Assembly (NCBI GenBank): GCA_905178155.1
Contig: CAJINV010000001.1
Coordinates: 2,964,265 to 3,028,264, forward strand
Direction: 5' to 3'
Origin: Amoebophrya sp. A120
Lineage: Eukaryota > Protista > Dinoflagellata
Length of the DNA: 64,000 nt
Position numbers and translations under genes: made by a program. This document shows positions 8,868-47,800 of this stretch, one piece after another. Position 1 is the stretch's first letter, and each line of letters begins with the position of its first letter. The notes beneath the pieces are model-generated. The model was not told the origin of the DNA and searched no databases. It saw nothing but the letters and a program-made list of their open reading frames with translations.

Positions 8868-9585
8868 GCCGCCGGGGCGGGGGTAGTGAGGTCGTGGGCG
8901 TTTTTTTGCCGGCCGCAGCCTTGGCCGCGGCTTTGCTTTTTACGGGCTCGCCATACCACCGTGAGTAACGTTATGCCGCACGGTATGGCGGCCACTTGGG
9001 AAACGTCGCAAATTTTGCCACATTTCCAAAATTCCTTTCCGAAAGCCAGCCCCGATGCTATGGGGCCGATCCGGGTGCCACGGGGGGCGCCCCAAAAGCG
9101 AACAAAAACCGGGCCCATAGCATGCGGATTGGCTTTGCGCGTCTGGTGCGCTTTTTATTTTTCGCGTTTTTATCTTTCACGCCGGCGCTTTTTGCAAAGC
9201 TTCCCAGGCTCTAAAACCGGCGAAAAGGCGGCCGCTTTCGCGGCCGCCCAAAATGCTCCGAAATCGCGGCCGTGCCATGCTGTTTCGCTGTTCTGATTTT
9301 GGGCGCGTTTCTTGCGCGCCCCTTTTGGGGCGCCCCAAATCGCCAGAAACTAAGGCGGCGGGCGCCTCAGAAGGGCGCCCCTTTTGCCGGCTCCCCTGCG
9401 TCGTTTTATCAAGCGGGAATCGATAGTTTTCGACCGGGCTTTTTTGTTGGCAAAGCTCCGGCCGCTTGATAATTGAAAATCTTTTTCGTCAAAAAACACT
9501 CCCGCCCGCTTGAAAACTGCCGGTCGTTTTGCTGGCTGGGTGTCAAAAAAACTCCCCGGTTAGAACCGTTCGGTGACCTCACTAC
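8868..9585. repeat. Candidate intergenic MITE-like element, rich in homopolymer runs and palindromes
   Basis: 11-bp inverted repeat gtagtgaggtc (8883) / gacctcactac (9575-9585); atata at 8863-8867 and 9586-9590; recurrent gggcgcccc palindromes; composition differs from the flanks. Confidence 0.45.
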
Positions 9586-17261: not shown

Positions 17262-18230
17262 CTATATTCTCTGATTCACCGGCGAAAGTGATCTCGACAT
17301 CTTGGCGTTTTTATTCCTGACACTTTCTCTCTGCCGGCTCACAAATTGCGACTCCGGGATCCAAAACCGTTCTGGATCGTTTCGCTTCACCTCGGCGTGC
17401 GGGTACCGGATGCGCATGAAGTTTTGAAAGGTCTGCAGCCTTTTTTTCTCGGGGAAGGTCATATCCGCGAAGATTTGCTGCCTGAACATTTGGTGAAACA
17501 GCATGTCCTTCGGCCACACGTCGGATTTGCGGAAACCCTCGGGATGCGGGTCGTTGTCAGACTCGATCGCTTCCTCGTAAAAATTATCCAGGAAAAAACA
17601 CCCATCCCCATCCAATTTGTCACGCAAAACATGCATAAAATCCACTATTTGTCATGCACAAAATGGATGGGGATGGGTGTTTTTTCCTGGATAAAAATCC
17701 TTCGGAAGGTTCTCGATGGCTTTCAGCGTACTTTCCTCCAGAAGTTGTTTCTTCTTAGCGAGTAGTTCCTCGTGCTTCCTCAGATGCGACAAGTAGATCC
17801 GTCGCTCCTTCTCGTACTCTTCCCGATCCGCCTCGCTGTCGTTTGGCGCCGCTGGGCTGTAGATCAACTGCAGCAGGTTTTTCACATTTTTCTCTCGTCG
17901 AAGAAAACTGGTGGTCAGTGCGACGAGCTCGCCGGGGAGAAAGGGGAGCAGTTTGATGAGGGTGGAAGCTTTTTCCTTTTGCGCTTTCACTTTCACGAAG
18001 CTGAAACTTCTGGATTGGAGGTGATGTTCGTGTTGTAGTTGGGTCTCCGCAGTTTTTCTTGTTGCCGACATTGGCTGGAGGACGGGCACCAAAGACGTGC
18101 GCGTGCAAGCTGCACCATAGCTATGGACGAGGACGCTTCGGCTGGAGCTCGAAGACCCTCCGGAGACGAATAGCCCGACAGCACGCGCACGCAGTGTAGG
18201 TACGACGCTCGTTGCCATGGCACGCGACAT
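17262..18230 (-). CDS. Mitochondrion-targeted protein, probable mitoribosomal mL40-like; split by a TIR intron
   Basis: R/S/A-rich presequence ending RSFS. The joined sequence LLEESTLKAIENLPKDFYEEAIE resembles the mL40 helix. The frame is restored by removing 17585-17693 plus one TSD. Confidence 0.6.
17585..17693. mobile_element. TIR introner, family E, 109 bp
   Basis: TIRs tatccaggaaaaaacacccatccccatcca / tggatggggatgggtgttttttcctggata; perfect TSD aaaat; has an in-frame stop if retained. Confidence 0.92.
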
Positions 18231-18612
18231 GCTCAGGTGCTAAATTTCCCCTTCGGTGATTCTCTTTTTCTATCTAAACTCGAAATAGAAAACTGAAGCC
18301 TCTGGAGGTATTTTTACAAAAGAGACCGAGCTAGATTGTGGTGCTTCTGAAAACCAGATCTGAGGGGTCTGTGCGGTGCTGGCCGCCAATGTGAGATATT
18401 ATTAGCTCAGCACAAAAAGCTAAAGCAAAGGCAAACGAACATTACATCAAACCCGAAAGCGGCGAGACGATGCGCAACGCCTTGCTATAGTAGCACAACC
18501 ACAAGCATGTCCTTGATGGTCGATAAAAATGCGCGTAGACCAATAATGTGGCGTCAAAATCGTCCTTTGATCTGCAGTGCAGTCCTACAGTACACAAGAA
18601 CTCTGCTTTTCT

Positions 18613-21600
18613 TCACATCCCTGAATCCAGCACGGACGTCAGCAAATGCTGCGCCTTCCCGCCAACCCGGTCGCTGGTCGGGAATCGTTGCATGACCTTC
18701 ATCACGAAACTCACCGCCAGTTCGCGCTCCGACTGCTTTTTCTCCTCCTCTTCTTCTTCGTCAAACAAGCCTATTCCGCCCATCGGCTCGTCCTGTTTTT
18801 CCAGCGATTTCCGCTTCAACTCGTTGCTGGCAAAGGCGTTGGCGCACGCGGCGACGAGGGACTGGGAAAGGACGCGCTGGACACTGGAGTCGATGGCGAG
18901 CAGGTGGAGAACGGCGTTGAGAACCGTGGCCGTGTATTCCTCGTGGAGGCTTTCACGAATAGAGTCGATCTGGAGGTGAGATGAAGTATGTATTTTCATG
19001 TTCGGTAAGAAAAAAATCATGTGCATGGCAAAAACGAACGCCCCACGTCCTCCATGCAAATGCAATGGCACACAAAATGGAATAAGCTACTTACGAGCGG
19101 AGACACAAACATGTTTATGGCGCATTGACAAAACTATACCAGAACAGCCACCAACATCACCACCAACGGTGTTTCTTTCCCAGGATTCCAGTACGACAGC
19201 CTCGCGATCGCGCGCAACACCTCCATCTCGACCGCGAGTGGAAGCAAGTTCGGAATCTTCTTTTTCCCACCACCTCCTCCAGCTCCGATCTGCGCCTCGC
19301 TTTCGTAGTGCTGCAGAACTGACAAACACAGTCCGATGCTGCTGGCCTGGTCGAACAGCGCGGCGAGCGTGCGTCGCAGCCGACTCTGGAGGTCCAGTGA
19401 AGGGAGTTTCTGGTGCAGGTCGACCAAATTCGTCACGATGGTCAGGCGGAATTTGTTCTGCGACTCCAGATTGCTGTTGCGACTGCTCGCTGGAGCGCCG
19501 GAATGATGCAGAAATTCTGTTTCCTCGACGAAAAAGTCGCTTTCCTCCATGGCTGAGCAAGCCAATTCGACGAAAAACGGATTTTTCTTCGATTCGACGA
19601 AGTGCACGAGCGAGAAGAGACAGATCTCGGAACTCTTTTTCAACAGAACCTTCATGCAGTCCTGCGCGACCAGGGTGAGACTCTCTGTTAGCAGGTTATG
19701 GGGCTCTCAAACGTTACATTCTCAACTGTTACATGATTTGTCATGCAAAAACGCTATCACTTCTCACAATTTCAAACCTTCTCCGCATGACAAGTTCTCG
19801 ACGCGCTAGATAGCACTGTAATCTATTCCAAACCTGTAATGCAAAAGGCGCAACCCTCTCCCTTTCACTATTGCCATTCTTGCATTGCAAATTTATGTAA
19901 CAGTTGAGAATGTAACATTTGAGAACACCATACAGGTCGGCAGGGACTTCGAAAAGTTCAAACAGCCGGTCCATAAACCCCAGTGCAATCAAGTGGTCAG
20001 GAACTACACTGGTCGTGGGCAGCTGCGTTGGAGTACTTCTATTTGGTGCAGCTTCTTCATCTGCGTCTGGTCCTGCGGCCCCCGCTTTGCTGATCCTGCT
20101 GGTTGCGTCCCAGTGGTCCAGCATGGTCCTGACAATCTCCAGACTGCTCTTATGGCGTTCTCAAACGTTACATTCTCAACTGTTACATGATTTGTCATGC
20201 AAAAACGCTATCACTATTCACACAACCAAGCCTTCTTTGCAAGACAACTTCTCGACGCGCTAAATAGCACTATAATCCGTCCCAAATCTGTAATGCAAAA
20301 GGCGCAATCTTCCTCCTTTCACTTTTGCCACTCTAGCATTGCAAATTCATGTAACAGTTGAGAATGTAACAGTTGAGAACGCCATAGCTCTCCAGCACGG
20401 GCCACCACTTCGTCGGCAGTTTCAGTTCGTGGAGCGCGATATCAACTGTAAAAATGTCTGGGTCTGGAAGGATGCAAGATTTGTGATGCAGGTTTTTCAT
20501 GACCCATGAGGTCTGGAATGCGAGACCCAGCATGTCAGATTCTTTGAGGTCTCTATCATGCCTTTCCTGCATGAGAAACTCCCTCTCAACTTGGTCAAAA
20601 GCGGACACCTTTTGGTACTCACGCAACACAGATTTTTGCATCATTCAGATTTGGCATGACAAGTTCTAATCTTCCAGACCCAGACATTTTTACATTTGAT
20701 ACGCGAGGAGAAATGGTTCGACAGCAGTTGAACGTGAGAGCCTCGGGCAATATTCGCGATTGATTTCATCTTCCTCCTCCTCCTCATTGTCACCGGGGGA
20801 AAGTGATTCTCTCAGAACTCGAAACTGCATGACCCCGTAGGGCAAATCGTCCTTCTCGCATTGGTCTACGCATTCGAGCACAGCTTCAAACAACTCCAGC
20901 AGCTTCTGAATTACCATCGCGGAATCCAGTTTCAACACCTGCAGGCGAAAAGTCCCCGCACTCATTCGCGGCAGTGCGACGGCCCAGAGGAGAAGGTTCT
21001 CGGTTACTCGGGTCGTGTAGGAGGAGGCGGTGGAAGTAGGTGCCTTGCTGTCCAGAACGACTAGGGCAGACGCCCATGCGTAAAGGTCAGAATACAGCTC
21101 GTCTGATGTCTCTGTCGGTGCGGGAAAAAGCGAACTGGCCGCTGTTTTGTTTGTTTTTTGCTTCCGAGCGGTGCGCGTTTTTTCAGAAATAGGAACGAAT
21201 AAAACGGTAAGAAAGTTTTCAGTATCGTGGAGCTTCAAACTTTGAGTTTCAGGTTTCAGTCTCTAAGAAAAAAGAACTTTTTACCACTTGCTTCCGCATG
21301 CTGTACGCGTGCTGCAGCACCAGCGCCGGTCTGCAATAGAATTGTCGGCGCAGCAGCTGCTGCGCGCTCCACTTCTGGACTGAGGAACAAAACTCGCAAC
21401 GTCAGTTGGCTGTCCTGGAATAGCTTGTCTAAGATGCGCAGGCACCCAGCTTCCGCTTCCGCAAAGTGTGGCTGGCCCGACACAAAGGCCGCGAGTATCT
21501 GCGGACCCGCGAGGCCGACGAAAACGCTTGGGGACAAAAAACCCGTTTTCAGCAGGTCATCGAGCGTCTCGACCACGATTCGCTTGATCGAAGCGATGAC

Positions 21601-24081
21601 TTTCGCCTTTTTCGACGTTGTCACATCATACGAATCTGCTATCACTGCTTCTGCCGGGCCACTGTCTTGATCAGCCGCGTTCCTACTTGTACGGCCGTCA
21701 TAAAACTCTGGCCCGCGCATCCGGAAAAACGCATAGAAGATGAGGCGCAGGTTTCGGCAAACCAAGGAGGTCAGGGTTTTGGTCAGCAATTCTTTCGTGG
21801 TCGCGGATTCAAGGTCTACTTGAAGGTTATCTGTGGCGATCTGCGTCAAATCTGAGGCAGAGGCTTCCGGCGAACCGCACTCGGTCTCGATCAGCAATGT
21901 CGTCAACAGATCAAACAACGCCGCGTTCTCGGCGAACTCGTCCTCTAAAAACCCCAATTCCAGCAGCATCTGGCATGCGCGCCGTTTCTCCCCGACAAAA
22001 ATGTTGTCCGTCAGTGCGACTTTGCAGAGCGAGTGGACTTCCTTGCGGAATGCCTTGGCCTCGGGGAGAAAGAGCTTCTTTGCTCCCCTGCTACGTGTCG
22101 GGGAGGACGAACCGGCTGGAGTGACGTCCGGAGAGGTTGTAGTCGCGGCGACTGCAGCATTTCCATCTCCCGCCTCCTCGATTTCTTCCTTGAGAATCGC
22201 TAGATTGTCCAGCATCGGGCGGACCAGCAGCCGTAAGATCTGCAACCGTAACTCGAGCAATTCCGTCTGCGGCGTCCAGATTTCGTTGTTCATCAGTACG
22301 CGCACGTGTTGGGCCAGATCCTGTGGCTCGACGACCGTGTCCAGCTCGGAATGCTGATGCACGAGTTGCCAATGCAGCAAGAGAAACTGCAGGCTCACCA
22401 TCCGTCCCTCCATTTTCCGCTCCTTAGCGACGGGATCCTCGATAACAGCGAGGCACAAGTTGGCGACAGTGTTGCGCAGCTTTATCCCGCCCGCAGTTGT
22501 CGGGGAGAGTGAAGGAACTGTTGCGTCGGGGTCGTCTGAAACTACAGGTGCGGGGGCCGAGGCAGTCGCAGTTTTGGCCGAAGTTCCTTGTTGTGCGGAG
22601 AAAATTTTGCATATTTCGGAAATGAACTTCAGGCGCCGTGCTTCCCTTTCCGCCGGATCTTCCTCGTCTTTACCACCTACTTTTGAACCCCGCGACGACG
22701 TTGCGCCGCCACCGCCGGAAGTTCCTGGTTGCAAGAATGCTGCAAAAGCCGCCCCAACGCCACTTCGTCCTGAAGGTGTTGCGAGTTTCGCCTCGGTCGC
22801 TGCGTCCGTTTTATTCGCAGACGACGACGAAGATCGCTCAGTGCCTGTCTTAGGCGGCGCCAGCAGTTTCTCCGCTTCCCAGAGTAGCTGCTGTTCTGGC
22901 GGAATTTTGGTTTGCGTCGCCGCGTTAACCAAAACTGGTCTGGCCTGCAGCCGCTGCTTTAAGACTGCGTTCTCCTCTCGCAGCAGTTCCACTTGCTGCC
23001 GCAAATCTTCGTTTTCCATGCTGATCCGCTGCAAAACGCCCTCTTCAAATTTGGATGACGGCGAAACCCGCACGGCGCCAGCTTCGCAGTTCTCGTGCGT
23101 GTTTTTAGAAGGGTCGTAGTCCTCTCTCGGCGGTGGGATGTCAACATCATCTTCAGGAGTGGCTCTCTTTGGTCCGTCGCCAGGATCGTGATCTAAGACA
23201 GGGCTGGCGATTTTGTCTACGTCTATCGTGTGCTGTTCCGTTTCGACAAAAGGACTCGGTGTACCTTTGGTATCGTCATCGACAGCTGGTGCAGAGGATC
23301 GCTTCACTAATTTCTCCTCCGGTCGTTCTCCTACATTCGTAGGTTCCACAGGTTCACGTCCACCACCTTCTGCAAGGGTATGCGAGACCTCCGCAAGCTC
23401 CGCTTTCCTTCCAGAGCCGCCGATAATCGGTCTAGGTGAAGACGAGGAGGACGAACCTTTTGCCGCCGAGGGCGAACTGGGAACTACAGGATGCACCACC
23501 CCCGACGTGGACTCGGCCGTCGAGGTACTCGTGCCGGCCTGCTTGGAACCGCTGGCCTTCGAGGTTCTCGTGCTGGTCACTGCGTCCTCGTCGTCTTCCA
23601 ATGCAGTTGTGAGATCGACAGGCACGGCTCCTGCACCTGCTCCACCAGGCTGGCCAAGGGCTGGGTCTACTTCTCCCTGTTCCAGAGGCTGTTGATGATC
23701 AAGATCATCTTCTACAAGAACTGCACTTGTTAGACCATCTTCTGGCCGCTCGTCCACCTGAGCTACTGGAACTTCTCGGGGACTAGCTTGTTCCTCGTCA
23801 GCGTCGACCTCGACTCCTTCGTCGGCCGACTCCGACTCGTTCTTCACCGCTGTGTACTGTGGCGATGAGGGTTCATCTTGTCCGGAATTGTCTTCATCTG
23901 CCCTCGCCGAATTGCGGTTGCCTTCTCCATCAACTTCAACATCTTGCGCTGGTGCTGGCGGGTCAAGGTCATCAACATCAACCGCTGTTCCTGCTGCATC
24001 TTCATCTCGCAGTTCTCCGCCCGCAGCTGCCGTTGGGTCCTCGTCGTCCCGAGCCTCAGGACTCGCGGGGGCGGACTCCAT
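18613..24081 (-). CDS. Large protein with acidic disordered N-terminus, coiled coil and helical (ARM/HEAT-like) C-terminal region; three TIR introns plus conventional introns
   Basis: ORFs 20690..21238, 20333..20644, 19741..20124, 19134..19655 and 18613..19071 chain in frame (FLLA|LHELK, VLES|SLEIV, PADL|LTESL; GT-AG intron 18970-19139). The junction to ORF 21256..24135 near 21180-21290 is not resolved. Confidence 0.75.
19697..19932. mobile_element. TIR introner, family A, 236 bp
   Basis: tatggggctctcaaacgttacattctcaactgttacat ... atgtaacagttgagaatgtaacatttgagaacaccata; perfect TSD caggt. Confidence 0.95.
20151..20386. mobile_element. TIR introner, family A, 236 bp
   Basis: tatggcgttctcaa ... 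ttgagaacgccata; perfect TSD gctct; highly similar to 19697-19932. Confidence 0.95.
20440..20701. mobile_element. TIR introner, family B, 262 bp
   Basis: tatcaactgtaaaaatgtctgggtctggaag ... cttccagacccagacatttttacatttgata; perfect TSD cgcga. Confidence 0.95.
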
Positions 24082-24934
24082 TGATCCAACTTGTAAATGC
24101 GAAGTGGATAGTACGATAACAAGAACGAGTGGCACCCACTGTATGTAGTGCTTCTATCAGTAGTCGACGATAAACCTAAAGCACACTACACGTAGTGAGA
24201 AAAAGTATGGTCGTGTGGAAAACTGGGCAGCGGCCTTTCTTCAAGCAAGGGCAAGCCGGCGGTACACATACAAGTACTTCAACTTGTTCATCTTTTCCTT
24301 TTAGTACGATCACGAACTGGACGCTTTCATCGCTCAAGAGCCACAACCACAGGGAAGCGCAAAGCAGTTGTGCGCCAGGTCGTGATACGCGATCACGTGC
24401 TCGGTTGTTGTAGATCCTGCATCCCGCCAAAGCCGAACGACGCAACACACATCCATGAAAAGCAAAGCAACACCATTTCTTTGACCTTAGTGCTTCGTCT
24501 TCAAAACGAAAACCACGAGGAATCAATGGCGCAGGCCTCGAAGAGCCTTTTGCAGGCCTCATGATGAGCTGATTCACTTTGCGAGTGTGAAGGGTATCAT
24601 TCATCCTCCTGGGGAGTGGTAACATTTGAGATATTTAGCCGTTAAGCAATACGTAGATTAACGTGCCATGCATGTTGTGCAAAAAAAGGCAAAATGTCAA
24701 CATGAGTATGAGATTAAGACCACTAGTGCAAGGGCAAATTCTTCAGGGCCGGGACTTGTTAATGGGTCGTGCGCCACTTCCGCAATCCCCCAACTGTTTT
24801 TCTCTTCTACTACTGATAGATTGAGTACTTACCACGAAACATATCATCATCATCATCATCTCCCGCCAGCAGGGCTCAACTGACGCTGTCAAGTGCAACT
24901 CAAAACGCCGACCACAGAGCAGCCTCTTTGTGGT

Positions 24935-26107
24935 CTACAACAACGTGCCAGCGTACTCCAGTTTCGCGAAAGTCCTCTGCCACCAGGGAGTCGCTTTTTC
25001 CACGTCCCGTTTTACAAAGGTGGATCCGACTTTTCTCGTCGCCAAATTCATCCACTGCACGATGAAACGGTCGCACACGGGCCGCAAAATCCTCCCCGTG
25101 AGGGATATCGACTGCGTCCGCGCGAACGACTCCACGAAAATCAAGCGCAAGTGTATGGCGTTCTCAAACGTTACATTCTTAACTGTTACATGATTTGTCA
25201 TGCGAAACTACCATGAGCCACCAGACGATCAAGCTACGTCGCATAACAAATTCCCGAAGGGCTAAACAGCGCCTAAATCTGTGCCAAATTTGTGATGCGA
25301 GAGCTGTAAGCTTGTCCCTTTCACTGCTGCGGTTCTTGCATGACAAATCCATGTAACAGTTGAGAATGTAACAGTTGAGAACGCCATAAAGTGCTGCTGC
25401 TGAGTCGCCTTACTATTTGCGGTCGCTCCTTTACAGTTGTGCAACCCGAGCATTTCGAAGAACAAGGCAGAGAAAACCACGGGAATGCAAACTCCAGGTC
25501 CGTTAACGAGTAAGAGGTGAGATTGGCGAAACACTGGAACCTTATACCATAACCAGAGGCATTGAAGACTGCTGGCAAAGGTGTTCCACGCACTGCTCAC
25601 CCAACCCTCGCCGACTTGCCGACTGCGCCGGATGCGGTACAGGTGCACGAGCTTTTTAGTGGTCGACGTGGGATCAGCATTTATTTGCTGTTCATCTACT
25701 TCAGGTTTATCTTTGCGTTTGCCGTCTATTCCCTTATTATTTCCCCTTTCGTTTATTCCATCCTGCACCACGGTAAATCCGTGGCGAGTGAGCAGTTTGA
25801 CGCAATACGGGTCGGAGCTTGTGGCGATGAAATGGAACTGAAACAGTGTGGGGTCGAAGCCGTCCACCAGCTGCAGTAGCTCCGATGTGTGCCCCCCACT
25901 GCCCAGCACCGCGACGCAATCGACTTTGTCCTTCCCGCCGGATTTTGCGCGGTTAGTTTTCGATGGTGGGAGGGGAATGCGGCCGATTTTGCAGACGCGA
26001 CGGAGGAAAAAACGACTGACGCGCAGCAGGAAAAGAAGCAGAGTGATCAGTAGCGCCGTGGCAACCGCCTTCAATTCCGTCTCGTACGAAGAGAGGTAAG
26101 ACGACAT
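24935..26107 (-). CDS. ALG14: UDP-N-acetylglucosamine transferase subunit ALG14; split by a TIR intron
   Basis: N-terminal TM segment and motifs VLGSGGHTSE, RIRRSRQVGE and LLVNGPGVCIP. After element removal it continues into IFVESFARTQSISLTGRIL...DRFIVQW. Confidence 0.95.
25154..25388. mobile_element. TIR introner, family A, 235 bp
   Basis: tatggcgttctcaa ... ttgagaacgccata; perfect TSD aagtg; in-frame stop if retained. Confidence 0.95.
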
Positions 26108-28373
26108 TGTTCTTTCGTATAATGCGATTTTCGTATTTTATTTTCTACGTTTTCAACCTGTTGCGATTGCCTCGAAAATACACGCGGTTGGACCACTGAC
26201 TTCCTGCTGTGAATTTTCTCCTCCAACGTTTAGGTAGTTTACTGAAGGAATGCCGACTATCATAAAGGTAAGTAGGCAATAGCACGTTAAAAAATGTGGA
26301 GCGTTGGTTGCTGGTGGAAACCAAAAGAGTAAGAGCACGAAAGAGATACATAGAAAATTGGTAGTGAAAAACTTGTGGGAGTGTGGACAACGATCAAGAA
26401 GCCATATATTTCGTCGTGTTTGCGTTTGATGTTCTTGATCTTCGCAACAACTGCAGATTGCGTTAGCGTTCTACTTGAACAACTACAACGACCTGTTTCG
26501 TGACAGTCTCCCCTTCGTTTTTGAAAAAGTCCGTGAACCTGAACAGGAAGATACTAGATTGAACAAAACCACTCAGGTGAAAGTAAAGTTGTTTTCTTGA
26601 AGTGAAGTTCATCTAGAGCAGCGGACACAGTGGATGAAAGCTGTTTCAAACCTCCACCAACGTCCATTTTTATTCTCTATCGAATAGTTTTAGAAACGGA
26701 TACTGGTATCGTAAGCATAAGGCTCTCCAATTCCATACAATCCAACAGTATCCTCACATAAACGGAATCAGATAGAAGAGTGAAGCCTGAAGCAAACTGT
26801 TTCGTTTGTATTTTTGCAGTCAGAAGTCATTTTCTATTTTCGCCCCTGGTAGTGGGGCGGGATTGCAACCAGCTACGTTTCGGAATTCTTAATACCGCAA
26901 AATTTCTATTCCTTCTAAATTGACGTAGTGAGTAGTAACTGTTGATTCAAACAAAGGTAAAGGTTCATTAAGGATAATTTTCAACATTGACATTCTGATT
27001 TTCATATACTTACAGCAAAGTATTCAACAAGATAGCACTGGTAGAAAAGTTCAACAGCAACAACATCGAAATCGGTACTGACTGAGACTCCGCAAGAAAT
27101 TTAGGGATAACAGTACAAGAATGAGCTTCTGCTTACTCGCCGTCCTGTTATCCTACTTCTCTTCAACTCGCCGTTCTGTCAGCCCGACACTGCATCTGCT
27201 TGAAGATGAAGGAAATATCCAGCGCCTACAGCTAAAGTGAAATAAAATAAACACTCATCATCACCTCCATTTTCACAAGATGACAGCACCGTCAATCTGC
27301 TCAATGCTTATTCTGTTTCTGTCAGCTAGTACAACTATGTAGTTTACTAGCTTTCGAAGACTGGCTGCTACAGGTGCTTCTGCTGGGCACGGTTGCAGCA
27401 CCAGCCTTCATCCATCAAACTTAGAATTTTCATTTCCGCGAGGAAGCAGCTATTGCTTCTCGCACGAAAATATTTTTTTCTTTTCCAGCTTGTATTTCTG
27501 TCTGTTTTCGTCGATAAGCTTTCAGTACAACAACGAGCTTTCATCATCCTCTACTATTCGGACTGGCTACGCAACCCCCTGCTGCGACAACGATTTTTCA
27601 TGTCGTGTAGCACGTTTTGATTCCGAAAAATAACCAATATTTCTCATGATTAACGTTAGTGCCAGGAAGCAATCCACAGCGACTCTACATTGTTCCTTTA
27701 TTCTTAAAAGGCGAGCGACGTCAACATCCAGATATACCTTTCTCACAACGTCAACATCATTGTTGAGGAGCTGCAGCTGCTTAGCATGTATCAAGATCAA
27801 CCACACTGGAACCACCTCGTTCCTGCGGCTTTAGTTTCTTTCTTCCGCCGGAAAAGCGTTTTCGTATCGCGACGACTAAGAGAGACGACGAGATACAAAC
27901 ACGACAAATCTTGCAAAACATGTGATGGAGGTGGAATAAGAGCGAAACGGAAACAGAAAACGAGATAAACGTAGTCAACAAATTGTAGAAGTACTAATAG
28001 ATTTTTTTTGTAGTTGTATTTCACGGTAAACTTTTTAACTACGACATCATTCGAAACAAATTGTACGTATCTCGGTAGTACGACGGTTCACCTTCTGCTT
28101 CTGCTCGAGCGCAGCAGGAATTCTGCCACCCTGCAGGTAGAAGAGTGATCCGCCATCTCCGAGGCAAAATTGACCAGTGCAAGACGGGTAGTACTAGTGG
28201 TTTTTCCAAAGATTAGTAGGGAAAGAGAATGGCGGAAAATCAAATTTTCCATATTTTCACACGCAATATTGGAATAAATCGCCAATGAATCATGAGGCGC
28301 CTATATCACATTTGAAAGAAATTCACATCAAAATTTAAATCTATATCGTGTAGAAGTTTTCCGTTTTCCACCA

Positions 28374-31300: not shown

Positions 31301-31379
31301 CCTCGGAGAGAAAGCTACCTGCATTTTTTGTATTGGTTTTTTGACTTGCACCACACTCACACACCATGATAAAGATAAG
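28374..31379 (-). CDS. Long N/Q/T/S/G-rich low-complexity coding region; its own gene or the distal part of the PIG-L-containing transcript
   Basis: About 1000 open codons. The first ~100 aa of ORF 28374..31679 are read from inside the 734-bp element and are probably not real. Confidence 0.7.
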   Translation of the reverse strand, partial: LIFIMVCECGASQKTNTKNAGSFLSEEPSTLLFGNSPIPTVEETLCFVDRDPAETSAVQTRKSEGRSGRRRGYMSLETSRELKKKMMNQEAADALDNSLLGGNLNNSFAAAAAGVAAGTADENNTTKGAAGATTNSTSGTNKGTTTGGPNTYSWADTTLSPSDGEHDNFGTANTNTTSATGISSSKNIYKAKPWMNASPAGAASAGGASSNAGGGATGAANNAGSGTGSNSSNHRNNLSSSQYNSTNDYGYNQHGQPYHGHQLQHGKRGIIGNNTSGSAYYNNRNNHYGMNHSGQQHQARGRDQHTSNSRYNNNFQRGYGHHGSFEKSGYGSQQGGRNNGARGAPAWPGATPNSMNSDQHFTLIDSKSLSACSSTAGTVGLGINWDNETNYPPGNMTTSINNIVRAANEGSCNDLLGVVGPLSAGAIGGPGGLLSGATGALSTTTAGVTTTTSTNALQQQLLGTATTPATNLMNGLDSVVSSTGAAVLVPSPAFAHAHSSPAIVQGDQLLAVQQQLIELDQGGGGQGLQLFTTTNNGTTNHRTFNQSQLGQDLMFHTTTSSNNSSNGMDGTTNVIDLTSLQQILQRSSTTGIGATSGTTTCAASTTTNTASCSILAGSNQPAPASTTLLANSIMQTPNNSASEQQQQQQLQANNTISTALGLGNTGASTPHAEQPQQLSQQQLQELASFAASMPPLTTNLQLVGAAGATTGTNGQQEQQQTAQILQQNLNGCAHHLLSTTGGDLLSSVSADTCASSGNNNCVISNTTSCTTATQQLVPLPMETSQSFVGTASNQNPLSHCPSLQLNFNNGGAGSGLVSTSNGHQQSAAHNNMYNAVEHQHQQQTNQGINTTTSTAPSVCWAETLGQLSGSEVNSHDLVRQLISQRQQLEQQPSVCAAAPPPAAPQPLIPLFTNPLNPTNAVIPPLNDNAFASSSNANINSSVLSTASEGAGAGNENVSSVSFTAGLRTNNELHPHSASPRRATSTPPARSASFGSLPPCMA

Positions 31380-31384
31380 TAATT

Positions 31385-32118
31385 TACCAAACGAAAAAAT
31401 GGGCCACAGCCAAACTTTCAAAATTTTGTTTTTCCGATTAAGATGACCAATGTGAGTTCTCGAGATGGAGCACTTCTGCCAGTGCGTATTTTCCCAGGCC
31501 GGGGCGAGGATCACGGGTTGGCGGGCCTGCAGATGGCCTCCACCTCCGACGTCGCACCACGGTAATATCGGCGACCTATTGAAGTCAAGTACTCTCCATC
31601 TGACCTGCCTGATGGCAAGACTATTGCTGGCTTCTCGGTCGGAACTCCAGGAGAGACATCTGGGCATCACTGAAGGCACCCCCCTTCACGGGGTGCTTTC
31701 AGGGGGTGCCCTTCGTTGCTGTGGCAGATTTTTCGGAAACGGCCATACCATCGGTGGAAGGGGTTTCCGAAAAATCGGCCACAGCAGCACAAGGCAGTCA
31801 ATTTCGTGGCACCCCTCTGTCCTGTGGCCGATTTTTCGGAAGTGGGCGGCTTCTGCAGGGAAAACGCCGAGAATCAGCTCGCATGGCCCCCCCGCCGGCG
31901 CAGCTTTTCCCAGCCGGGCAGCGCCATAACCCAACGCCCCGCCTGGCCGAGGGTTGCAGAGGATAGCGCAGAGCCGCTTTGGCTGCGGCCTGCCAACGAT
32001 TGCCGCCTACCGATATGCGCCTCTTCCACCGCGGGAATCCGTCGGCCCCGGGCCTGCGGGCCGGCCCGTCCGGGAAAAATTTTGAAAATTTGGCTGTGGC
32101 CCATTTTTTCGTTTGGTA
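31385..32118. mobile_element. 734-bp TIR element (MITE/introner, family F)
   Basis: About 43-bp TIRs taccaaacgaaaaaatgggccacagccaaactttcaaaatttt / aaaattttgaaaatttggctgtggcccattttttcgtttggta; perfect TSD taatt; internal hairpins. Confidence 0.9.
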
Positions 32119-32173
32119 TAATTGATAAGAATGAGTCACGTCCTCGCTTGTAGACAAACTGCATTCATCATCA

Positions 32174-35100
32174 TCATGTACTGGGCTCATTTTCGCTTGC
32201 GGAGTAGGCCCAGAAGTCCTTGTTTTTTTTCCCGAATTTTTTGTTGTCGATCTTGTTCTCTAAGGCCAGCCAACAATCCGTCTTCGCCGCTTTCGTTACC
32301 GCCAACGAGCCTTCATGTTTAATACATCCGGAACTACCGACACCTCCCACCTTGGAACCGATCTTGCTATCAACAACTGCACTCAACCCGCCGGCGGCGC
32401 TCTGGCCGATGGTACCGTACTTACTCGTCATTTGGGACAAAGAAGCAAGCTCCTTCGAGTTGGTTCGTTTTTTCATCTCCACATCCTGGTAGCCTCCACC
32501 ACCCCCGCAGGAGGGCAGCTTCAGTTCGCTCATTTCTTCCAGCGAAGTCGTTCCCGGCAGCACTTCCGCCATCGGCTCCAACGTCCAAGACTGCGAGTGT
32601 TTCAGCGAGGAAAAAATCCCTTTCTTGATGTCCGATTCGTCGCTACCTTTCCCGTGCTTTTTCTCGATCGGAGACCGGCGGCGCTCGATGGGGAGCTTTA
32701 ATTTGGGTCCGTCCATGATGCGGTCCGCGATCTTTTTGATGCGCGAAACACTGCTGTTCATCTTGTCGGTATCCAAATCCTCGAGGCAAGATCCATCCTC
32801 AAGCGGGTTCTCGTCGTTATTGCGGCTCAGCAATCGGTCATTTTCATCCATCTGCATTTCCATGTCATTTTTGTTGTCCTCTGCAACTTCCGGCAGCTGT
32901 TCATTTTCCGTAATGTTGATGTTTAGGAGATCATCAGCGCCCTCCGAGGTTGTAAGAGCGTCGTTTTGTTGATCCTCTTCTTTGGCTGAGCAAGACGCGT
33001 CTGCTTGCAGCTCCTTCTTACTGTTCTTCTTGTCTGAGGACTTGTCGGAGCAAAGCTTTTTCTTTTCCGCTGCAGCTTCAGTGTCTGCCACTTCCGTGTC
33101 TTCAGAAGTGCTTTTCATCGTGGTCGTGGTGGTGACGGTGGAAGAAGATCTCCCGGATGTGACTGTCGGGACAAGAGAAGTCGGTTTGGACAGCAGAGCC
33201 AGAGCCTTACTCTTTTTCGCCTTTTTACCGCTCAACTTTTTGTTCATCGTCGTGTGGACTTGTTGATTGGTGCGGCTTGCGGTTCTGCTACAACTAGTAG
33301 TACCGGTTATTTGCTGTTCTTCATCATCTTGCTCCTCCGCGACTCGATCGAGATCCTTTTTGTTCGCAACACCTCCGATTATAACCCCGCCCTGCAGATC
33401 AGCAGAACAAGAAGGCATGACGACGGCCACGGGAGCTCCTGCCACGTCAAGGATCGGCGACACGTCTTCGGTCAAATGCTCGACCAGGTCAATCAGAGAA
33501 TTTTCGTGGATCGAAGAAACGTCACCAAACTTCTCTTTCTGGATCTGCTCCCGCCGCGGAGACGCCTTCTTTTTCTCCTGCGACTGCAAAGTTTCAGTTT
33601 CCACAGTGCTGGTATCTTGACCATCCCCGTTGACCAGAGGACCACTCGGACCACGACCATTTTGGTCTTGTACTTCGCCGTCTTTGTTCAACAATACATG
33701 CTTACTCCCCGTCTTGTCCGCTGTCGTAGCCATCGTTGTGTCAACGTCGTCGAATTCCGGTTGTTGCTTCGAGGAGGTTCTCGATCGGGCCGCGGGCATC
33801 ACCGCGTGCGTACTGACGTCCGGCTGGTGGGCCGGGGTCGCTTCGAGGTCCTGTAAAACATCTTCCGCAGATGAACAATGCTTCGTAGGAGTACCACCAG
33901 TCTGTGTAGTAGTTCCCTGCTTCTCTTTTTCCGGCGACGAGGCATAAAAATTACTGTTCATCGCGTGCAGCAGTGGCCCAGCGGTGGAAGTCGAGAGCCT
34001 TTTGGTGCGATTGTGGCAGGACGCCGGGGTGAGGCCGAAGGTGTTGGTGGTGGTTATGGCTTTCTCAACTGTTACGTTCTCAACTGTAACACGATTTGTC
34101 ATGCAAAAGCAGCATCATCATCCTCACGATCAAGCTGCTCCGCATGACAAACTTGCGAAGGGCTAAACCGCGCCTAAATCTGTGCCGAATTTGTAATGCT
34201 ACAGGTGCAACCTTCCCCCTTTCCCTTCTCCCAATTTTGCATCGCAAGTTCATTTAACAGTTGAGAGTGTAACATTTGAGAACGCCATAGTGGTCGTGGT
34301 GAGGCAACTGGTATCGGTGTCCGGCATGTCCGTGGTGCTGTCGTCGGTGTTGTCGGTGCTGGAGTCGTACTGCAGCGAGCTGTCGTGCTCGTATTCGTTG
34401 ATATCATTCACGATATTGCTGTATTGCGGAACAGCAGCAGCGGCCGCACCAGGAGTTGCTGCTGGCTGAGCAGAAGCATGATCTGCAGCAGAGGCAACAT
34501 TTCCTTCGCCAGTAGCGGAAAATTCGCACGTCGACCCCGTTTTCTCGCCCCCGACGTTAGCGGGCAGTCTTTCTTCTTGGTTAGGTGATTCGTTTTTTGG
34601 TTTCCCGTGGTCACCATCGCATTTATTGTCCATGTTGTTTTCCTTCTTTTTATTTCCGATCGAGCTGTTCTGCGCCGCATTGCAGTTCTGCTCCTGGTTG
34701 TCCTCCTGAAACACTGGTGCGCCGCCCACAGTCCCGGACGACACCGCCTGCTTTGATGCACCGTCTCCGGCAAGAGATGAAGCGACGGCGTTAATCTGGC
34801 TCGTCACGCGGCCAATTGTGCTGCCATTCTTAGTAGTACCCGAAGTAGATGAGCCGGAGCCCACTTTCGAGTTCGAACGCTTGCTGTTTTTCGCAGTCGA
34901 AGTAGAAGTCGTCGAGCCCCCACGACGCCCTTGTTTGCCGCTATTGTTTGAAGACGTTGTTAGGCTCGTAGTTCCGGAAGTGTCACCGAGCGGCGGTGCC
35001 TTCAGTGACTTCTGCACGGTTTCCGCGTCAACCCAGGCCACCTTGTTCACCAGAAAATAACTGGAGAAACAGCAATACAGGTAGCGAAACCAGACCAGCT

Positions 35101-36348
35101 GGGACTTGTGGACAGCGAGAAACTTGATGAACGTGGACGGGTAATCGAATCGTGAGTAGACTTGCAAAGCCGCTTCCGTCAGTTGCTGAGAAATCGGGAG
35201 CGTGAGGGAGACTTGCTGACCGAAGCTGCTTCCAGCACCGCAGAACAAAGGGCTGTCGAGTTGTAGCTTGTGTTTGTTCGCATTTTTACTGTTCACGGCA
35301 GCCACTTTCGCAAGGGAACCAGGCTGTTCGTGGTCACCTGTTTAGGAGGTTTTTTTCCAAGTGGAGGCCGAGGCGCAAAAACTGCCAGAGACTCAAAATG
35401 TTCTAATTCTGATTGAGCAATCAACAACACTAGCCGTAGCTACGGATATCAAACTCCTGCACAAGAAGTTTTCTCATGTCTTTACCTGCCAGCGCCCGTA
35501 GCTTGTCACAATTTTCCACCACGTAGTATTCCAGCCACCCAGCGTACTTCCGCCAAATCGGCACGGTTTGCAGGAACCCGTAGTGCTTGACCGTTCCGAC
35601 CGGCCCCGTCGTCAGCAACGCCTCCACGGCACGACAACAGGCAATGTGGTCCGGGTGCGAGGAAACACCGAATTGGTCGAAGGTGAGCAGCAAATCGAGT
35701 TTCTTCCCGGCCGCGAACTTCTTGACGCTGTTGACCAACTGCAACTTATCACTCGCCGTTTTCCCCACGGAGCCATCTGCGAAGTCCCCGATCGTGCAGG
35801 AGGCGAGGTGGAGGTACTTACACGATTGCCGCAGCTCCTTCTCCCGGACGGGGCCGAGACCGTCGAAATTCCCATTGGTGACACTGTACAAGTGAATCAC
35901 GTGATTCGTTTCCAGCAAACGGATGATAGTGGGGAGAAAGAACATCACCTCGTCATCCGGATGGGCGATGATCAACCCCACGTGTTTTGGTTGCGGGGCC
36001 TGTGGAATTGTTTTCATCTCTGAAAGTGAATGTGATCGCGCTTATGTTCTTGCCCTGGTTGTAGTACTAAAACCAAACAAGAAGACGAGTCAACTACACG
36101 ACTCGTCTGCTCATGCACGAGTACTACGCTGTCATGCAACTTGTCCTTGTGCATTGAAACAAAATTACCTTTTTTCCAACCCTGGGCACCACCGCAGTCG
36201 GTGATAGAAACGATGCGGGTGGGTCGCCCGGCGACAACACATACCCGGTCCAGGAGGCCAGGAACTTGTAGAACAGGAGGAGGTTCACTACCAGCAGAAT
36301 CAACCAGGTACAGTCGCCGAAAATCTGCGAGACTGCGTCCTGAATCAT
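32174..36348 (-). CDS. PIGL: N-acetylglucosaminyl-phosphatidylinositol de-N-acetylase (PIG-L) with an apparent long low-complexity C-terminal extension
   Basis: TM exon (ORF 36124..36348); motifs IIAHPDDEVMFF, GNFDGLGPVREKEL and TFDQFGVSSHPDH. A GT-AG intron at 35338-35485 leads to HKSQLVWFRYLY..FSSY..VN. The frame stays open through element 34055-34289 to 32174. Confidence 0.85.
34055..34289. mobile_element. TIR introner, family A, 235 bp
   Basis: tatggctttctcaa ... ttgagaacgccata; perfect TSD gtggt; removal joins ORFs 34250..35305 and 32174..34102 in frame. Confidence 0.95.
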
Positions 36349-41878: not shown

Positions 41879-44800
41879 CTACTCCTCGTCCTCTTCCTTA
41901 ATTTGTTCCAACGTTTCCTCCGGCGTGTAGGCCAGCAGCGGGTCCATATTGCGGCCGCGGATCCAGCGATAAAGGTCGTGGCGCTGCGTGAAAATCGCGT
42001 TACTCAGCATGTCCGGGGCCTGCGCAATTTGCTCTTGCAAGCTCACGTGCGAAGACTCGTCGAGATCCTGCTTCGGAGGGTGGTAGTTCGCGGGCATGCG
42101 GACTTGGTCCGTGATGTTGCGCCGGTCCGGAATTTGGGGGTCACTGGTTTTTGTTTTTTCAATTTGGTAAAAACTACGGTGAGACTTCTGAGAAGAAGAT
42201 CCTCGCTATGTAGATCATCTTGCAACACGGGCACTTCTATCGATCTAGCAGGAACAAGAAGCAGCAGACCGCCACCGGGTGCTTGAAAAGAGTGAGTTCA
42301 AGTACTTTCTCTGCCTCGCCGCAGCGTAAACGTGGTTTCTCTCCAGAGGTGGCCGCTTCGGAATGCGATACAGTACCTCCTCCCCCTCGATCGCGTTCTC
42401 GGGCGCGGGAACCTCGTGGTGCCGGCCATTGTGTTCGAACCGTAACAGCGTTTGCTTCGTGCAATTGGGCGGGACTGTTAACCGCACCCGCGAGCCCTCT
42501 CGCTCCATTTCATCCAGCAAATAGAGCATGGTATCGTGCTGCGCAATGCTCGGCTCCCCGGGCTCGGGGACCTTGTCTCTTTCTCGCTGCAAGCGTTCGT
42601 TGACGGCGGCTAACGCTAGCGCATCGTGGTCCAGGTCACCGCTGGTAGTGGTGCCGCTGCCACCCATCATGTCGTTATTCCCGTTCGGCGCAGCTGACGA
42701 AGCACCAGACCCGCTACTCTGGTTGTTTCCCCTCTGGTGCAGTGCGCCGAGCGGCCCTCGTTGCGAATTTGACGAGCTGGAGGATGAGGCACCAGCTCCT
42801 CCCTGCAAGCCGCGTGTAGTACCTCCTAGAAGGCTCGGCATTGTCAGCCCTGTTGGGGGTAGAAGCTGGAAGGAAGAGGTAGATGAGGCGGAAGCGGATC
42901 CCTGCTGTGCAGTACCCTGGGCGGCCTCTTTCCCCTTTAGTGACTGGAAGCTTGGTCCTTCATCTGCAGTTTTGTAAATCCACTTTCATCAGCATTTTGG
43001 CAACGCAGTTCTTCACTTCAGTACTGCGTCAGTATGTTCAAAATGAAAGTAAAAATTTGCAAAAAAAAAGTTCCCGAATGAAAAATGAATTATACCAGCC
43101 GGCTCCGCATCTCCCTTATCCTTCATCTCCATCTTTCTTTCGTTCTCCAGCTGCTGCATACTTGGCACGAGCGACATTCGCCGCGGCGGCGTGTTTTGTT
43201 CCTTCTTCGGCGACCACTCCCGGTCGATTGGCTGGGTTAAGTCTAGCTTGTCCACCACCGTTTCCGTCACCCGCGGCGGCGTCGAATGTTTCACGTCGGG
43301 CGAGCAAGAGTGATCCGTAGTTCCGGCAGGTGGCGGCGGCGGCGCGGGCCGGTCGGCGAAGGTCGCCTTCGCGACATTCTCCCGGCTGGTATCCAAATCC
43401 TCTTGCGTACACGCCTCTGTGGGCACGAACTGCGCACGGACACGCTTCACCGAAGTTGCATCGTGATGTAGCCCGCTCCTGGTTCTACTCGTCGGCTCAC
43501 GGGACAGTGGTCTGGTTGCGGCTTGTATGCGTGCTAGTTCCTCCTGGGTCGTGCTCATCGCACTGCTGGTGCTGATTTTGTTCGTCGTCTGCACCACGAC
43601 AGACGGGAGGACAGAGGGAGCTGCAGCAGCATGATCTTCCGCTGACTTGTTACTCCCGAGAGGACCCCGAGCAGACGGAAGATTGTTGTTCCCCACCTCT
43701 TCGATGGTAGTCGAGGCAGATTGCGGCACGATTCCCCCTCGCCCGCGCTGGATCACCTCGCTTCTTGAGAGCGAGGAGGAGGGCTGCGACAAAGAGGAAG
43801 ACACGTTGGAGCCGACGACTGAGGACTCCGTGGGTGAAGCAGCAGTGCCGCCTATGTTTGGCGGCCGGTCGGGGGCAGGCGGAAGAAAACCTGCTCCCGA
43901 GGAAGATGTTGAGCTGGAAGATGGTGTTGCGCCCGGGCGCCGGGCGGGCGGCTTCGAGGTCCCGTAGGTGGTGCGCGGCGGTCCTGAATGATCCAATTTA
44001 TTGGTGACAGCCGAGGAGGAACCGTTTGGAATTGGGTCAGCGGGATCTTCGTCGACAATGAACTCGTCCTCGTCGCTGGAAATAGGTGGTGGCGGCGGGG
44101 CCGAGCGACGGTTGGAGGTCGAATACTGTTCCTCATCGGCTGCATTTGCCACCTGGTTTATTGGCAAGACCTGCTGCATGCATGTATGTACTAGTGCTAC
44201 CAGAACCAGTGTAAATTATAGTATGAGAACATATGCTTATGCATATCCGGAACAACTTCTGATGTTGGTTACTTGACTACGAAATTTTTAGTTTTACCTG
44301 TGAACTGTATGCGCTCCTGGAAGGCGCGACGCTCTGCCGCGCTCCAGCTCTGGGATACGGATACGACCCTTGAAAGGACTGCGACATCGCCCGCGGTGGC
44401 GGACTGCTACCGCTGATCGCCCCGACCTCGCTGCTCGACGAGCCACTTGCACCACTGCTACTCCCCGGGTTGCTGCTTCTCCGCACCCCGGAATCCCGTT
44501 TCAGCGGCGCGCCATTTTCGACGTCGTAGAGTTCGGCCTTCAGCTGCTTGTTCTCTTGCAGCGCTGCTTCCAACACGGCGCAGAGTTGGAGCTGTATGGC
44601 GTTCTCAAACGTTACGTTCTCAACTCTTACATGATTTGTCATGCATACCCGACTGCACCACATCAAAAACCTTTGCACCGTCGCCGCAAGCAGCTTCGGA
44701 CGCAGGAGATCTAGGGTCAGAACCGCGAAAAACATCGCGCGTATTTCTTCTTCATATTACATGATTTGTCATGCAAAATCACAATTAGAATTGATATGAT

Positions 44801-47800
44801 ACGATCAAGCTGCTCCGCATGACAAATTCTCGAAGAGCCAAACAGGCTGAGAATCTGTGCCAAATCTGTCATGCCAAGCGCGCAAGGTCACCCCTTTGAC
44901 TTTTGCCATTCTTGCATCGCAAACTCATGCAACAGTTGAGAATGTAACAGTTGAGAACGCCATAAGCTGGAACTTCGTGTTGTAGGTGAAGTACTCGCGC
45001 AGAAACACGTCGTAGGTATATGACAGTGCACAACTCCCCCTCCCCCTCATTTGTCATGCAAAATACCCAATTTACCCTTTGTTTTCCTCTTAGCACTGTT
45101 TGCATGACAAGTTTTGGTAGCCCAAATAGCACTATAATCCAGTGCAAATTTGTATTTGTCATGCAAAACCAGCATTCTTTCTGATGCTTGTATTGCCGTT
45201 GATGCTATACAAATGAGGGGGAGGGGGACGGGGAGTTGTGCACCGTTATAAGGTAATGTTCGGATCGTGAAGAAAGGCCCGGTCGCTTTCGTTTTCCTCC
45301 AGTTCCACATGGTAGTTTTCTCGAATCTCGCGCCATTTTGAATGCGTGCGGTCGTCCAACTTCAGCACGATGTCCCGCAGACCCTCGGGCGCAATCTGCT
45401 GCTGCATCCGCGCGTCCAGCTCGATAGACCGCCGACGATTCGCGATGGTGTGGTCCACCACGGCAGGAGCAGCATTACTGTCGACCGGCCTGCTGCTGCG
45501 AGCTCCGGAGCCCCGTCTCCGGACGTGGTTGTTGGAGTTGCGGTTTTGACTGCGCAGGAGCGCCTCCGCGGCTTCCGCGGTGGGCGACGCGTTCGCGGAC
45601 GCCAGCGGCGTAGCTGCCGAAGACGAGGGGGAATTCAAGCCTCGGGAGTTTCGGGCTAGAGGCTGGCGCCCTCCACTCGCCCTCCCAGTGCTGTTGCCCG
45701 ACTGCTCCGTGGGCCGCTGTTGTAGTTTGCATCAAGAAATTCGATCAGAATCAATGTGTTTTTGTTCCCAGCTCAAATACTAGACACGCAAATAGCCCCT
45801 GGGCGACATCAGTCTGAATAATCACAAGTACCCGATTCGGTGGTGGAGGTTTCCGCCCTGTTGGCGCATCTCGCGACGCGGCCGCCGCCCTCGCCGCGTT
45901 CAATCTATCGACCATGTGCCAGACGCGGCCAAGACCCCCGCCCGGAGGAAGTGGTTCGCACAATTTGTCTATGTCAGCTTCGTCGACACGACCAGAATAC
46001 AGTTCTTCCTGCCTGCTTGCCCGAGCCTCGCGCTCCCGCATTTCCGCGTCTATTTCCTCTCGCAACTCCCGTCTGCTGTTTTGCAACGAATCGTAGTGAG
46101 AAACAGGCACAACACCGGCAGCCGCGCCCGCCTCTTCCTCCGCACCTGCTGCCCCGCGCCCGCTGCTCCGACCGCTGTTCCGCGTACTACTCGTGGTCCC
46201 GACGCCCTTCCCGTGCTGTCGAAAATCCTCGATGTTTTGAATTTGATCACTCTTCCCACTATTTCTCGTCGCATCCCCGCTCGGTAAAGTGTCACTGGTT
46301 TGCGACCTGGACGCCGACAGTGTGCGCTCTACTTTCGACCGCTTTTTTTCCTTTTTGTCTTTCTTCGATTTCTTCGCTGGAATCATACTACTGGCATCCT
46401 CCCTAGAATGATCAGCAGAGGAAGTCAAGGACGTCATCGCCGAATGAAGGGTTTGTTGTTGATGCTGTGGGGGAGCTGCAAATCCGCCCTGCACTGTAGC
46501 GTGCAGCCTGCTAGTACTCGAAGAGGACCCGCCGACCTGGTGCTGCGGTGATGGTGCCCCTTGCAGGTGGAGCTGTGATGTAGTAGTCGCTAGCATGCCT
46601 TGATCATGTTCTCGAGGTGGGGACCGAGCGACGTTCGGACCAAGATCTTGGAGCGTAGGCCGTGCGTAGGAAGGGGAAGAGGTCGGCAGCAGCGACGGAC
46701 TTTCTGCCCGTGGTTGAGAAGTCGCTCGTGCGTGTTTGTCGCTCGAAGTTCTACTTGCGGTATTTAAGTGGAGTCGACCTGATGTGATGTCGTTTTTCAT
46801 AATTTTTAAAAAGGTTCAGGGTTTTCTCGAAGAAAAACGGAAATGACGCCAGCACTACCCAAAAGACCATCGAAAAAGTGCACTTCGCTTTACGAAAGCA
46901 AGAAAACGGTTCGCACCTGTGCTCAGCTGGAGTCCAAAGGGCGCTTGCAATTGGCACGGCGACGTGTTCAATGCGTGTTGGTGCTGCTGGATGTCGATCG
47001 AAGTGGGCGACACTGCGCCCGGTCGCGAGAGCCCCGCTCCGGGAAAGACATTCAACCGCGTGGCGCCCCCCGCTGGCTGGGCAATTACCCTACCGATCGC
47101 GCTCTCCCCGCGATCCACGCTCCATCCGCGCTGCTGCGCAGCAGACAGGTTTGCGGCCCCCGCGCCGCCAAGCTGGGCCCCCGAAGTGGCTGCGTTGTTG
47201 GTCGCTCCTGCACTGGGACCAAAGGCGGTTCTGCCTCTGCTGCTGCTCGTGCTGGCGTTATTGTTCCCGGAATCTTGGTGCTGTGCGCCGACAACTGCAC
47301 CACCCGCCCGACTTCTGTCCGAGGGTGCAAACCCAAAGCTGGAAGCCGTCTGGTTCTCGTCAACTGTTGGTGTAGAAGGCGAAAACGCCGGAACCTCCGC
47401 ACTTCCACCACCACGACGCGAAGATGAAACTGCTAGAGAATGCTTGCTAAACGGATTAGCTGTAGCGGTCTTCAACCCCTGCAGGGTTGGGATCTGTAGG
47501 CCTGCGCCTGCGGGTGGGCGGTGCGCCAAAAAGGCATTTCCGGCAGAATATGAAAACAGAAAACGGATCTGGGCGAGGTTCTTAGTGTAGAAAGGCACGA
47601 AGTTGCTCTTGCGCATGACGCCTGTAACATCTTCGGTAGATGATAATCTTGCGTGACTCCTACAAAAGGTTCTTTGGATGATTCCCATCCTATGTTAAAG
47701 CAGTAGTCTGTTTCTGCACTTTCATTGAAAATTAAAAATGCCGCATCGTTTTTCATTTTACCAAAGGATAGCTTGAAACCGCTTGTAGTTCCACCACCGG

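Follow-up and report, generated by a model that had tools for sequence, protein, structure and literature searches.

Introner elements in a 64-kb stretch of the Amoebophrya sp. A120 genome: no selection for GT-AG junctions, both orientations, and likely removal from pre-mRNA

In Amoebophrya sp. A120, 65% of the 66,565 introns supported by RNA sequencing (RNA-seq) are non-canonical (Table S4, PMC7789003). As described by Farhat et al. in 2021 (PMC7789003), many introns of this organism carry inverted repeats together with direct repeats of 3-5 nt over the boundaries (a 5-bp example is given in the legend of Figure S19). The inverted repeats begin with TAT and show a run of A after about seven variable bases, and the genes mix canonical and non-canonical introns. 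The same repeat and hairpin layout was reported for 15% of the canonical introns. U2, U4, U5 and U6 and 83 of 89 spliceosomal proteins were found, U1 small nuclear RNA (snRNA) was not detected, and hairpin-assisted joining with an altered spliceosome was proposed (PMC7789003). The class has been reviewed since (PMC11453091). The introns that A120 has to remove without GT-AG, and apparently without U1 snRNA, number in the tens of thousands. We analyzed a stretch of 64,000 nt of this genome (contig CAJINV010000001.1, positions 2,964,265 to 3,028,264; hereafter the window), in which the elements that interrupt the genes are introner elements of the class already known from the 2021 study.

The nonconventional introns of euglenids, as reviewed in PMC11282704, are like the A120 elements in their stem of terminal inverted repeats (TIRs), their repeats resembling a target-site duplication (TSD), their non-canonical junctions and their coexistence with spliceosomal introns. 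They belong to another lineage and have other terminal motifs, and an origin from miniature inverted-repeat transposable elements (MITEs) has been proposed for them. A pyrimidine/purine consensus at the junction and CAG/CTG motifs in the stem are described for them. They leave as circles rather than lariats. The same review describes non-canonical introns with TIRs and TSDs in Fritillaria, which are handled by a spliceosome. The introners of algae and Symbiodinium (PMC9860276) are MITE-like, have a TSD and TIRs, and restore the length of the mRNA, as in A120. On the other hand, their GY/AG either belongs to the element itself or is co-opted from the TSD, and the A120 repeats showed no such bias. 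The internal eliminated sequences (IESs) of Paramecium (PMC3464196) share with the A120 elements a TA at both ends and precise removal from coding regions. They differ in being unique-copy sequences that are removed at the DNA level, with one TA kept and with nuclear dimorphism needed; the A120 elements are multi-copy, and both TAs leave.

The window elements agreed with the published A120 introners in organism, hairpin-forming TIRs, boundary repeats, TAT start with A-run, division into families and length (about 240 nt). The inverted repeats, given as 8-20 nt in PMC7789003, measured 30-73 nt at 80% identity or more in all 11 window elements, and nothing was different in kind. Orientation independence, a test for GT/AG bias and the spacing of 38-62 nt reported below were not found in the available text of PMC7789003, and our literature searches returned no paper since 2021 that settles the mechanism of removal. 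That mechanism is narrowed by the constraints added here: the junctions show no bias, the elements occur in either orientation, the cut is placed near the 5' TAT, and a subterminal motif is shared.

The elements (Table 1) were collected by a loose search of the window for TAT..ATA termini next to a 5-bp repeat. It gave 15 candidates, whereas 30 shuffled sequences gave 2.0 on average. The ten strongest, in which at least 12 of the 15 terminal bases were complementary, were retained and the five weak ones were dropped as chance. An eleventh element, with the duplication aatta, has TAC..GTA ends and lies outside this set. The duplications were 5 bp long in 11 of 11 elements, exact in nine and with one mismatch in two. 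All 11 sense-strand duplications listed in a first-pass annotation of this DNA were present at the implied positions on the minus strand, in the sense direction of the window genes. The nine elements it listed with exact duplications were all real, but one of them, 31385-32118, was not in coding sequence. That annotation had also taken the TA terminus for the only constant; ten of the 11 elements share, in addition, TAT..ATA ends and an internal 10-mer (31385-32118 begins with TAC). Folding gave z-scores of -7.6 to -13.4 for the ten TAT elements and of -0.3 to +1.6 for four canonical introns (20 shuffles each), and the hairpin was predicted in both orientations (-110.5 and -113.2 kcal/mol). 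The five window copies of the TATGG family were mutually alignable and all faced one way.

Three open reading frames (ORFs) of the window matched NCBI proteins named Amoebophrya sp. A120, at 100%, 100% and 99% identity. The ORF at 25397-26137 was ALG14 by Pfam and was 100% identical to the A120 protein P0001 (CAD7923567.1), and two further ORFs matched the A120 proteins P0015 and P0016. At six of the six elements that they cover, the models of these proteins drop exactly the length of the element plus 5 nt (240, 312, 267, 267, 241 and 241 nt). The A120 gene models were built from BLAT-aligned transcripts, as canonical-seeking tools had failed (PMC7789003). The precise removal is therefore indirect RNA evidence, as distinct from reads. 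The P0015 and P0016 models also bore out the earlier claim that the same genes contain canonical introns and a second class without GT-AG, which had been published as well (PMC7789003). The three GT-AG introns named with that claim had the ends assigned to them, and two are used by annotated proteins.

Keeping any single element truncated the host protein in eight of eight tests. ALG14 then measured 281 instead of 310 aa, and the product of the PIG-L-domain gene 539 instead of 1151 aa. Conversely, with 44595 and 45019 both removed, the longest frame grew to 280 aa, compared with 161 aa before. The ALG14 proteins of A25 and AT5 align through the junction (the orthologues in A25 and AT5.2 are 41% identical to A120 ALG14). 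No frame argument applies to 31385-32118 because it is outside coding sequence, flanked on one side by a stop codon near 32174 and on the other by the ATG that follows at 31367.

Removal from the pre-mRNA rather than from the DNA is likely. The first-pass annotation had envisaged two removal pathways, the second of which would read the TIR hairpin or excise DNA as ciliate IESs do. Of this, the coexistence of two intron classes held and hairpin reading is the part best supported, whereas the IES-like route was poorly supported. Programmed excision in an expressed, somatic-like copy of the genome would suit the TA termini, the precise restoration of the frames and the alveolate host, and Amoebophrya has a multinucleate intracellular stage. 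However, the TAs are the ends of the inverted repeats of a repeated element, both disappear with it, and the junction retains a variable 5-mer, whereas Paramecium keeps one TA of a unique copy (PMC3464196). The families here are multi-copy, with 90 other loci. Moreover, the elements are retained in the open frames of two separate assemblies. We know of no germline/soma nuclear dimorphism in Syndiniales, and without it excision in the lineage that yields the spores would erase the elements. DNA-level excision is thus highly improbable.

No precise register gave GT-AG, GC-AG, GA-AG or AT-AC in any of the 11 elements. Sliding the junction across the 5-bp repeat never yielded GT and AG together, and six elements (6552, 17585, 25154, 31385, 34055 and 45019) gave neither in any register, both as stated in the first-pass annotation. 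There, the missing GT-AG had been treated as a surprise. Between TA ends, 3.2-3.9% of 5-mers permit GT-AG (3.2% for local coding 5-mers), and the chance expectation for 11 elements was P = 0.70 for no GT-AG case and 3.8 cases with neither. The result therefore matches chance for unselected insertion sites, and the real oddity is that the genes tolerate such inserts.

A larger sample came from a second assembly. The terminal pattern of the commonest family, used as the query, gave 90 loci (L001-L090) in metagenome contigs with the prefix JACKZZ01; the same pattern had no match in viral contigs. These loci carry the element families of the window at up to 94% identity. They have no exon in common with the window, so that no empty-site comparison was available at the DNA level. 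The raw TA..TA candidates numbered 290; of these, 144 had an exact flanking repeat of 5 bp, six had one of 4 bp and none had one of 6 bp. Requiring a 5-bp repeat with at most one mismatch and removing duplicates left 159 elements, 137 exact and 22 with one mismatch. TAT..ATA ends were present in 155 of the 159, from a search seeded by a single family and restricted to TA ends, and A occupied positions 13 and 14 in 96% and 89% of the element ends. For 146 of the 159, open frames together with a codon model allowed the host strand to be called. Most of 25 exon fragments from these loci were without a Pfam match above the cut-off.

Among 125 elements with exact repeats, three were compatible with GT-AG versus 5.1 expected from the flanks, four with GC-AG (3.0 expected) and nine with GA-AG (6.5 expected). 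Any AG was possible in 59 (61.7 expected), any GT in 54 (56.0) and neither in 41 (41.2). No single register deviated (all p > 0.2). Of the 125, neither a G before the TAT (37 versus 37.9) nor an AG in the repeat (11 versus 8.5) was preferred. The length plus 5 nt, taken modulo 3, was distributed 66/56/37 over the 159 elements, so divisibility by three was not required.

Both orientations occurred as well. Sixty-five of the 111 elements with an assigned orientation and strand faced as in the window and 46 faced the opposite way (p = 0.09), with which a mild bias remains compatible. Strict frame criteria, applied to 37 cases, gave 18 in the same orientation, 11 in the opposite and 8 of undetermined orientation. 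One locus (L071) held both orientations within a single ABC1-kinase frame (Pfam). The lack of a junction bias and the presence of both orientations suggest that removal is blind to junction sequence and orientation, and together with the 10-mer shared across families (see below) they favor hairpin-guided removal from the RNA.

Two candidate rules were tried and rejected. A strict orientation rule, as with a directional branch-point motif, had been suggested by the five same-facing TATGG copies of the window, and the split of 65 to 46 rules it out. The other was antisense GT-AG, which 19697 and 45019 would have if read from the plus strand. The P0016 model assigns 19697 to the minus strand, and elsewhere 4 of 146 elements were compatible, which is chance.

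The indifference to junction sequence and orientation also bears on a structure-specific endonuclease acting on the RNA with a ligase, a route proposed for the nonconventional introns of euglenids. Such enzymes might cut the stem in or beside the repeats, join the exons and release a circular or linear RNA. In their favor are the lack of a bias toward GT or AG, whatever the register, the occurrence of either orientation and the strong terminal stems. The TIR introns of euglenids are excised as circles, not lariats (PMC11282704). However, the candidate enzyme is still hypothetical, and the spliceosome of A120 is nearly complete, with U1 snRNA undetected (PMC7789003). The canonical introns that have the repeat and hairpin layout (15%, PMC7789003) suggest a continuum handled by one machine. 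We regard the nuclease and ligase as possible and as the main alternative, though less likely than a spliceosome.

The position of the cut was constrained by the two elements with mismatched repeats. P0015 keeps the upstream base at both (Y453 and F471). Together with the allowed registers, this confines a cut shared by both elements to offsets -2 to 0 relative to the first TAT; the GT-TA and TA-AG registers of 6874 are then excluded. The nine commonest non-canonical donors of A120 all have T at +2 (Table S4, PMC7789003).

In-frame GT/GC-AG pairs were found within 30 nt of ten of the ten coding elements, 2-18 for each. The cell might splice at such hidden canonical sites, with small in-frame changes, and the precise junctions of the transcript data could then be an artefact of complementary DNA (cDNA) synthesis: reverse transcriptase can skip a hairpin between direct repeats by template switching, which the combination of a hairpin and a direct repeat promotes, and the evidence for removal is cDNA-based. 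However, the candidate pairs change 1-17 codons and vary between elements, and 17585 has only GC donors, which delete at least 11 codons. A second set of sites would be required for the copies in opposite orientation. The annotated junctions were precise in six of six cases although canonical-seeking aligners were in the pipeline. Hidden sites or a cDNA artefact are therefore improbable.

We favor RNA removal that is guided by the terminal stem and proceeds through a U1-independent spliceosome, and consider it probable, with some reservation. Hairpin-guided removal is the best-supported reading, unproven as it is, and was also the suggestion of Farhat et al. The elements themselves were likely left by a DNA transposon. 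In the proposed scheme, an integrase-like DDE transposase would insert the element, binding the subterminal 10-mer. The inverted repeats of 30-70 nt would then pair, bringing the two repeat copies together. The distance from the 5' cut to the first TAT would be 0-2 nt, with 1 nt (N/TAT) as the likeliest value, a register that resembles the GTAT donors of two canonical window introns (two of the five inspected). The 3' cut would fall 3-5 nt beyond the final ATA. Catalysis would be by a U2/U5/U6 spliceosome that is independent of U1 and reads the terminal hairpin, not GT and AG.

Several points weigh against this scheme. Where neither GT nor AG nor orientation matters at all, a non-spliceosomal route is no less compatible than a spliceosome. 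The evidence for removal consists of gene models and PMC7789003, not RNA reads, and the annotated proteins cover six of the 11 elements; for the gene with 44595 and 45019, the best match to an annotated protein was at 28%. The ALG14 junction is at the edge of a variable linker, where the conserved C-terminal block starts. With this linker and the in-frame GT/GC-AG pairs nearby, homology alone cannot exclude small in-frame changes. The constraint on the cut comes from two junctions in one gene model, with one shared register assumed, and the T at +2 may come from the read aligner; G, moreover, is not favored before the TAT. Finally, the authors of PMC7789003 reported no transposase found in A120.

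A bolder possibility is a second splicing route that is blind to sequence. It would measure from the hairpin, with the register fixed by the TAT, accept any orientation and junction, and read the 10-mer through the nuclease and ligase or a transposase-derived factor. We consider this doubtful. If it were true, any insertion of this transposon class would become an intron at once.

The internal 10-mer, TTTGTCATGC, was confined to the elements: 16 of 16 exact window matches to it or its reverse complement fell inside them, although they make up 5% of the window. With at most two mismatches it was present in all ten TAT elements of the window and absent from 31385-32118. Its last copy started 49 nt from the 3' end in eight of the ten and 40 nt in the other two. 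In the second assembly, 115 of the 159 elements contained an exact copy, and 111 of 187 end-proximal matches started at position 41-42. The motif is common to families with different terminal repeats. Because its placement is symmetric and fixed across these families, it suggests a predicted common binding site for a transposase. A role in RNA removal, as a candidate site for a splicing factor, is possible. The motif was not found in the main text of PMC7789003; Figures 3, 4 and S19-S25 of that paper may show it.

Integrase-like TIR introners have been reported for A120 (PMC12130899). The IS3EU/GingerRoot DNA transposons (PMC10045372) have TA..TA termini and TIRs, as in the A120 elements. They make TSDs of 6 bp, whereas those of A120 are 5 bp long, with none of 6 bp among the 290 candidates. 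They are only a lead for the mobilizer.

Table 1. Elements, canonical introns and host genes of the window
Position	Strand	Feature	Remark
6023..6222	-	canonical GT-AG intron, 200 nt	used in P0015
6552..6813	-	262-bp TATCAA-family element, mismatched duplication ttcat/ctcat	267 nt absent from P0015, upstream base retained
6874..7180	-	307-bp element, mismatched duplication gtact/gtgct	312 nt absent from P0015, upstream base retained
17585..17693	-	109-bp element, TAT..ATA, exact duplication atttt	lies within a predicted ORF of 280 aa that begins at 18218
18616..24081	-	host gene of P0016, 1468 aa	two canonical introns and three elements
18970..19139	-	canonical GT-AG intron, 170 nt	used in P0016
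19697..19932	-	236-bp TATGG-family element, duplication acctg	P0016 removes 241 nt
20151..20386	-	236-bp TATGG-family element, duplication agagc	P0016 removes 241 nt
20440..20701	-	262-bp TATCAA-family element, duplication tcgcg	P0016 removes 267 nt
21142..21284	-	canonical GT-AG intron, 143 nt, absent from the list of the first-pass annotation	used in P0016
24938..26107	-	host gene ALG14, 310 aa	one element
25154..25388	-	235-bp TATGG-family element in ALG14, duplication cactt	P0001 removes 240 nt
31385..32118	.	734-bp element, TAC..GTA, duplication aatta	outside coding sequence
34055..34289	-	235-bp TATGG-family element in the PIG-L-domain gene, duplication accac	frame effect of removal
35338..35485	-	canonical GT-AG intron, 148 nt, PIG-L-domain gene	frame only
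44595..44964	-	370-bp TATGG-family element, duplication cagct	extra segment of about 135 nt, subterminal motif repeated
45019..45250	-	232-bp element of another family, duplication tacct	frame effect together with 44595

Two of the elements in Table 1 departed from the rest. The 31385-32118 element is GC-rich, with inverted repeats of 52 nt and internal repeats, and lies between two genes. It probably belongs to another transposon lineage. The extra segment of 44595-44964 ends in the second subterminal motif, and this may be a nested or recombined element.

Neighboring elements tended to lie close together. Over the window and L001-L090, 18 of 80 gaps measured 38-62 nt, versus 5.0 expected from an exponential distribution, and two were shorter than 38 nt, versus 8.3 expected. 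The gaps 6813-6874, 20386-20440 and 44964-45019 are window examples. This close spacing suggests local insertion beside the end of an existing element, or a minimum exon size.

Nearly all long ORFs of the window (1-64000) are on the minus strand, which may be compared with the unidirectional gene clusters described for Amoebophrya (PMC7789003). The PIG-L-domain gene (32177-36017, minus strand) continues after the domain into a predicted low-complexity tail of about 900 aa. At 13691-14800 (minus strand), the product is a protein with two RNA recognition motifs; nucleolin was its best solved match, not a core splicing factor. An Rfam scan of the 64 kb gave no match, and thus no snRNA in the window.

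Two further stretches resembled mobile elements. The sequence 24155-24818, between ALG14 and the next gene, has TAT..ATA ends with terminal complementarity of 17/20 and no clear 5-bp duplication, and is possibly an old element. Another, at about 8875-9585, is GC-rich and internally palindromic, with ends that resemble an 11-nt inverted repeat and no clear duplication; this is possibly another mobile element.

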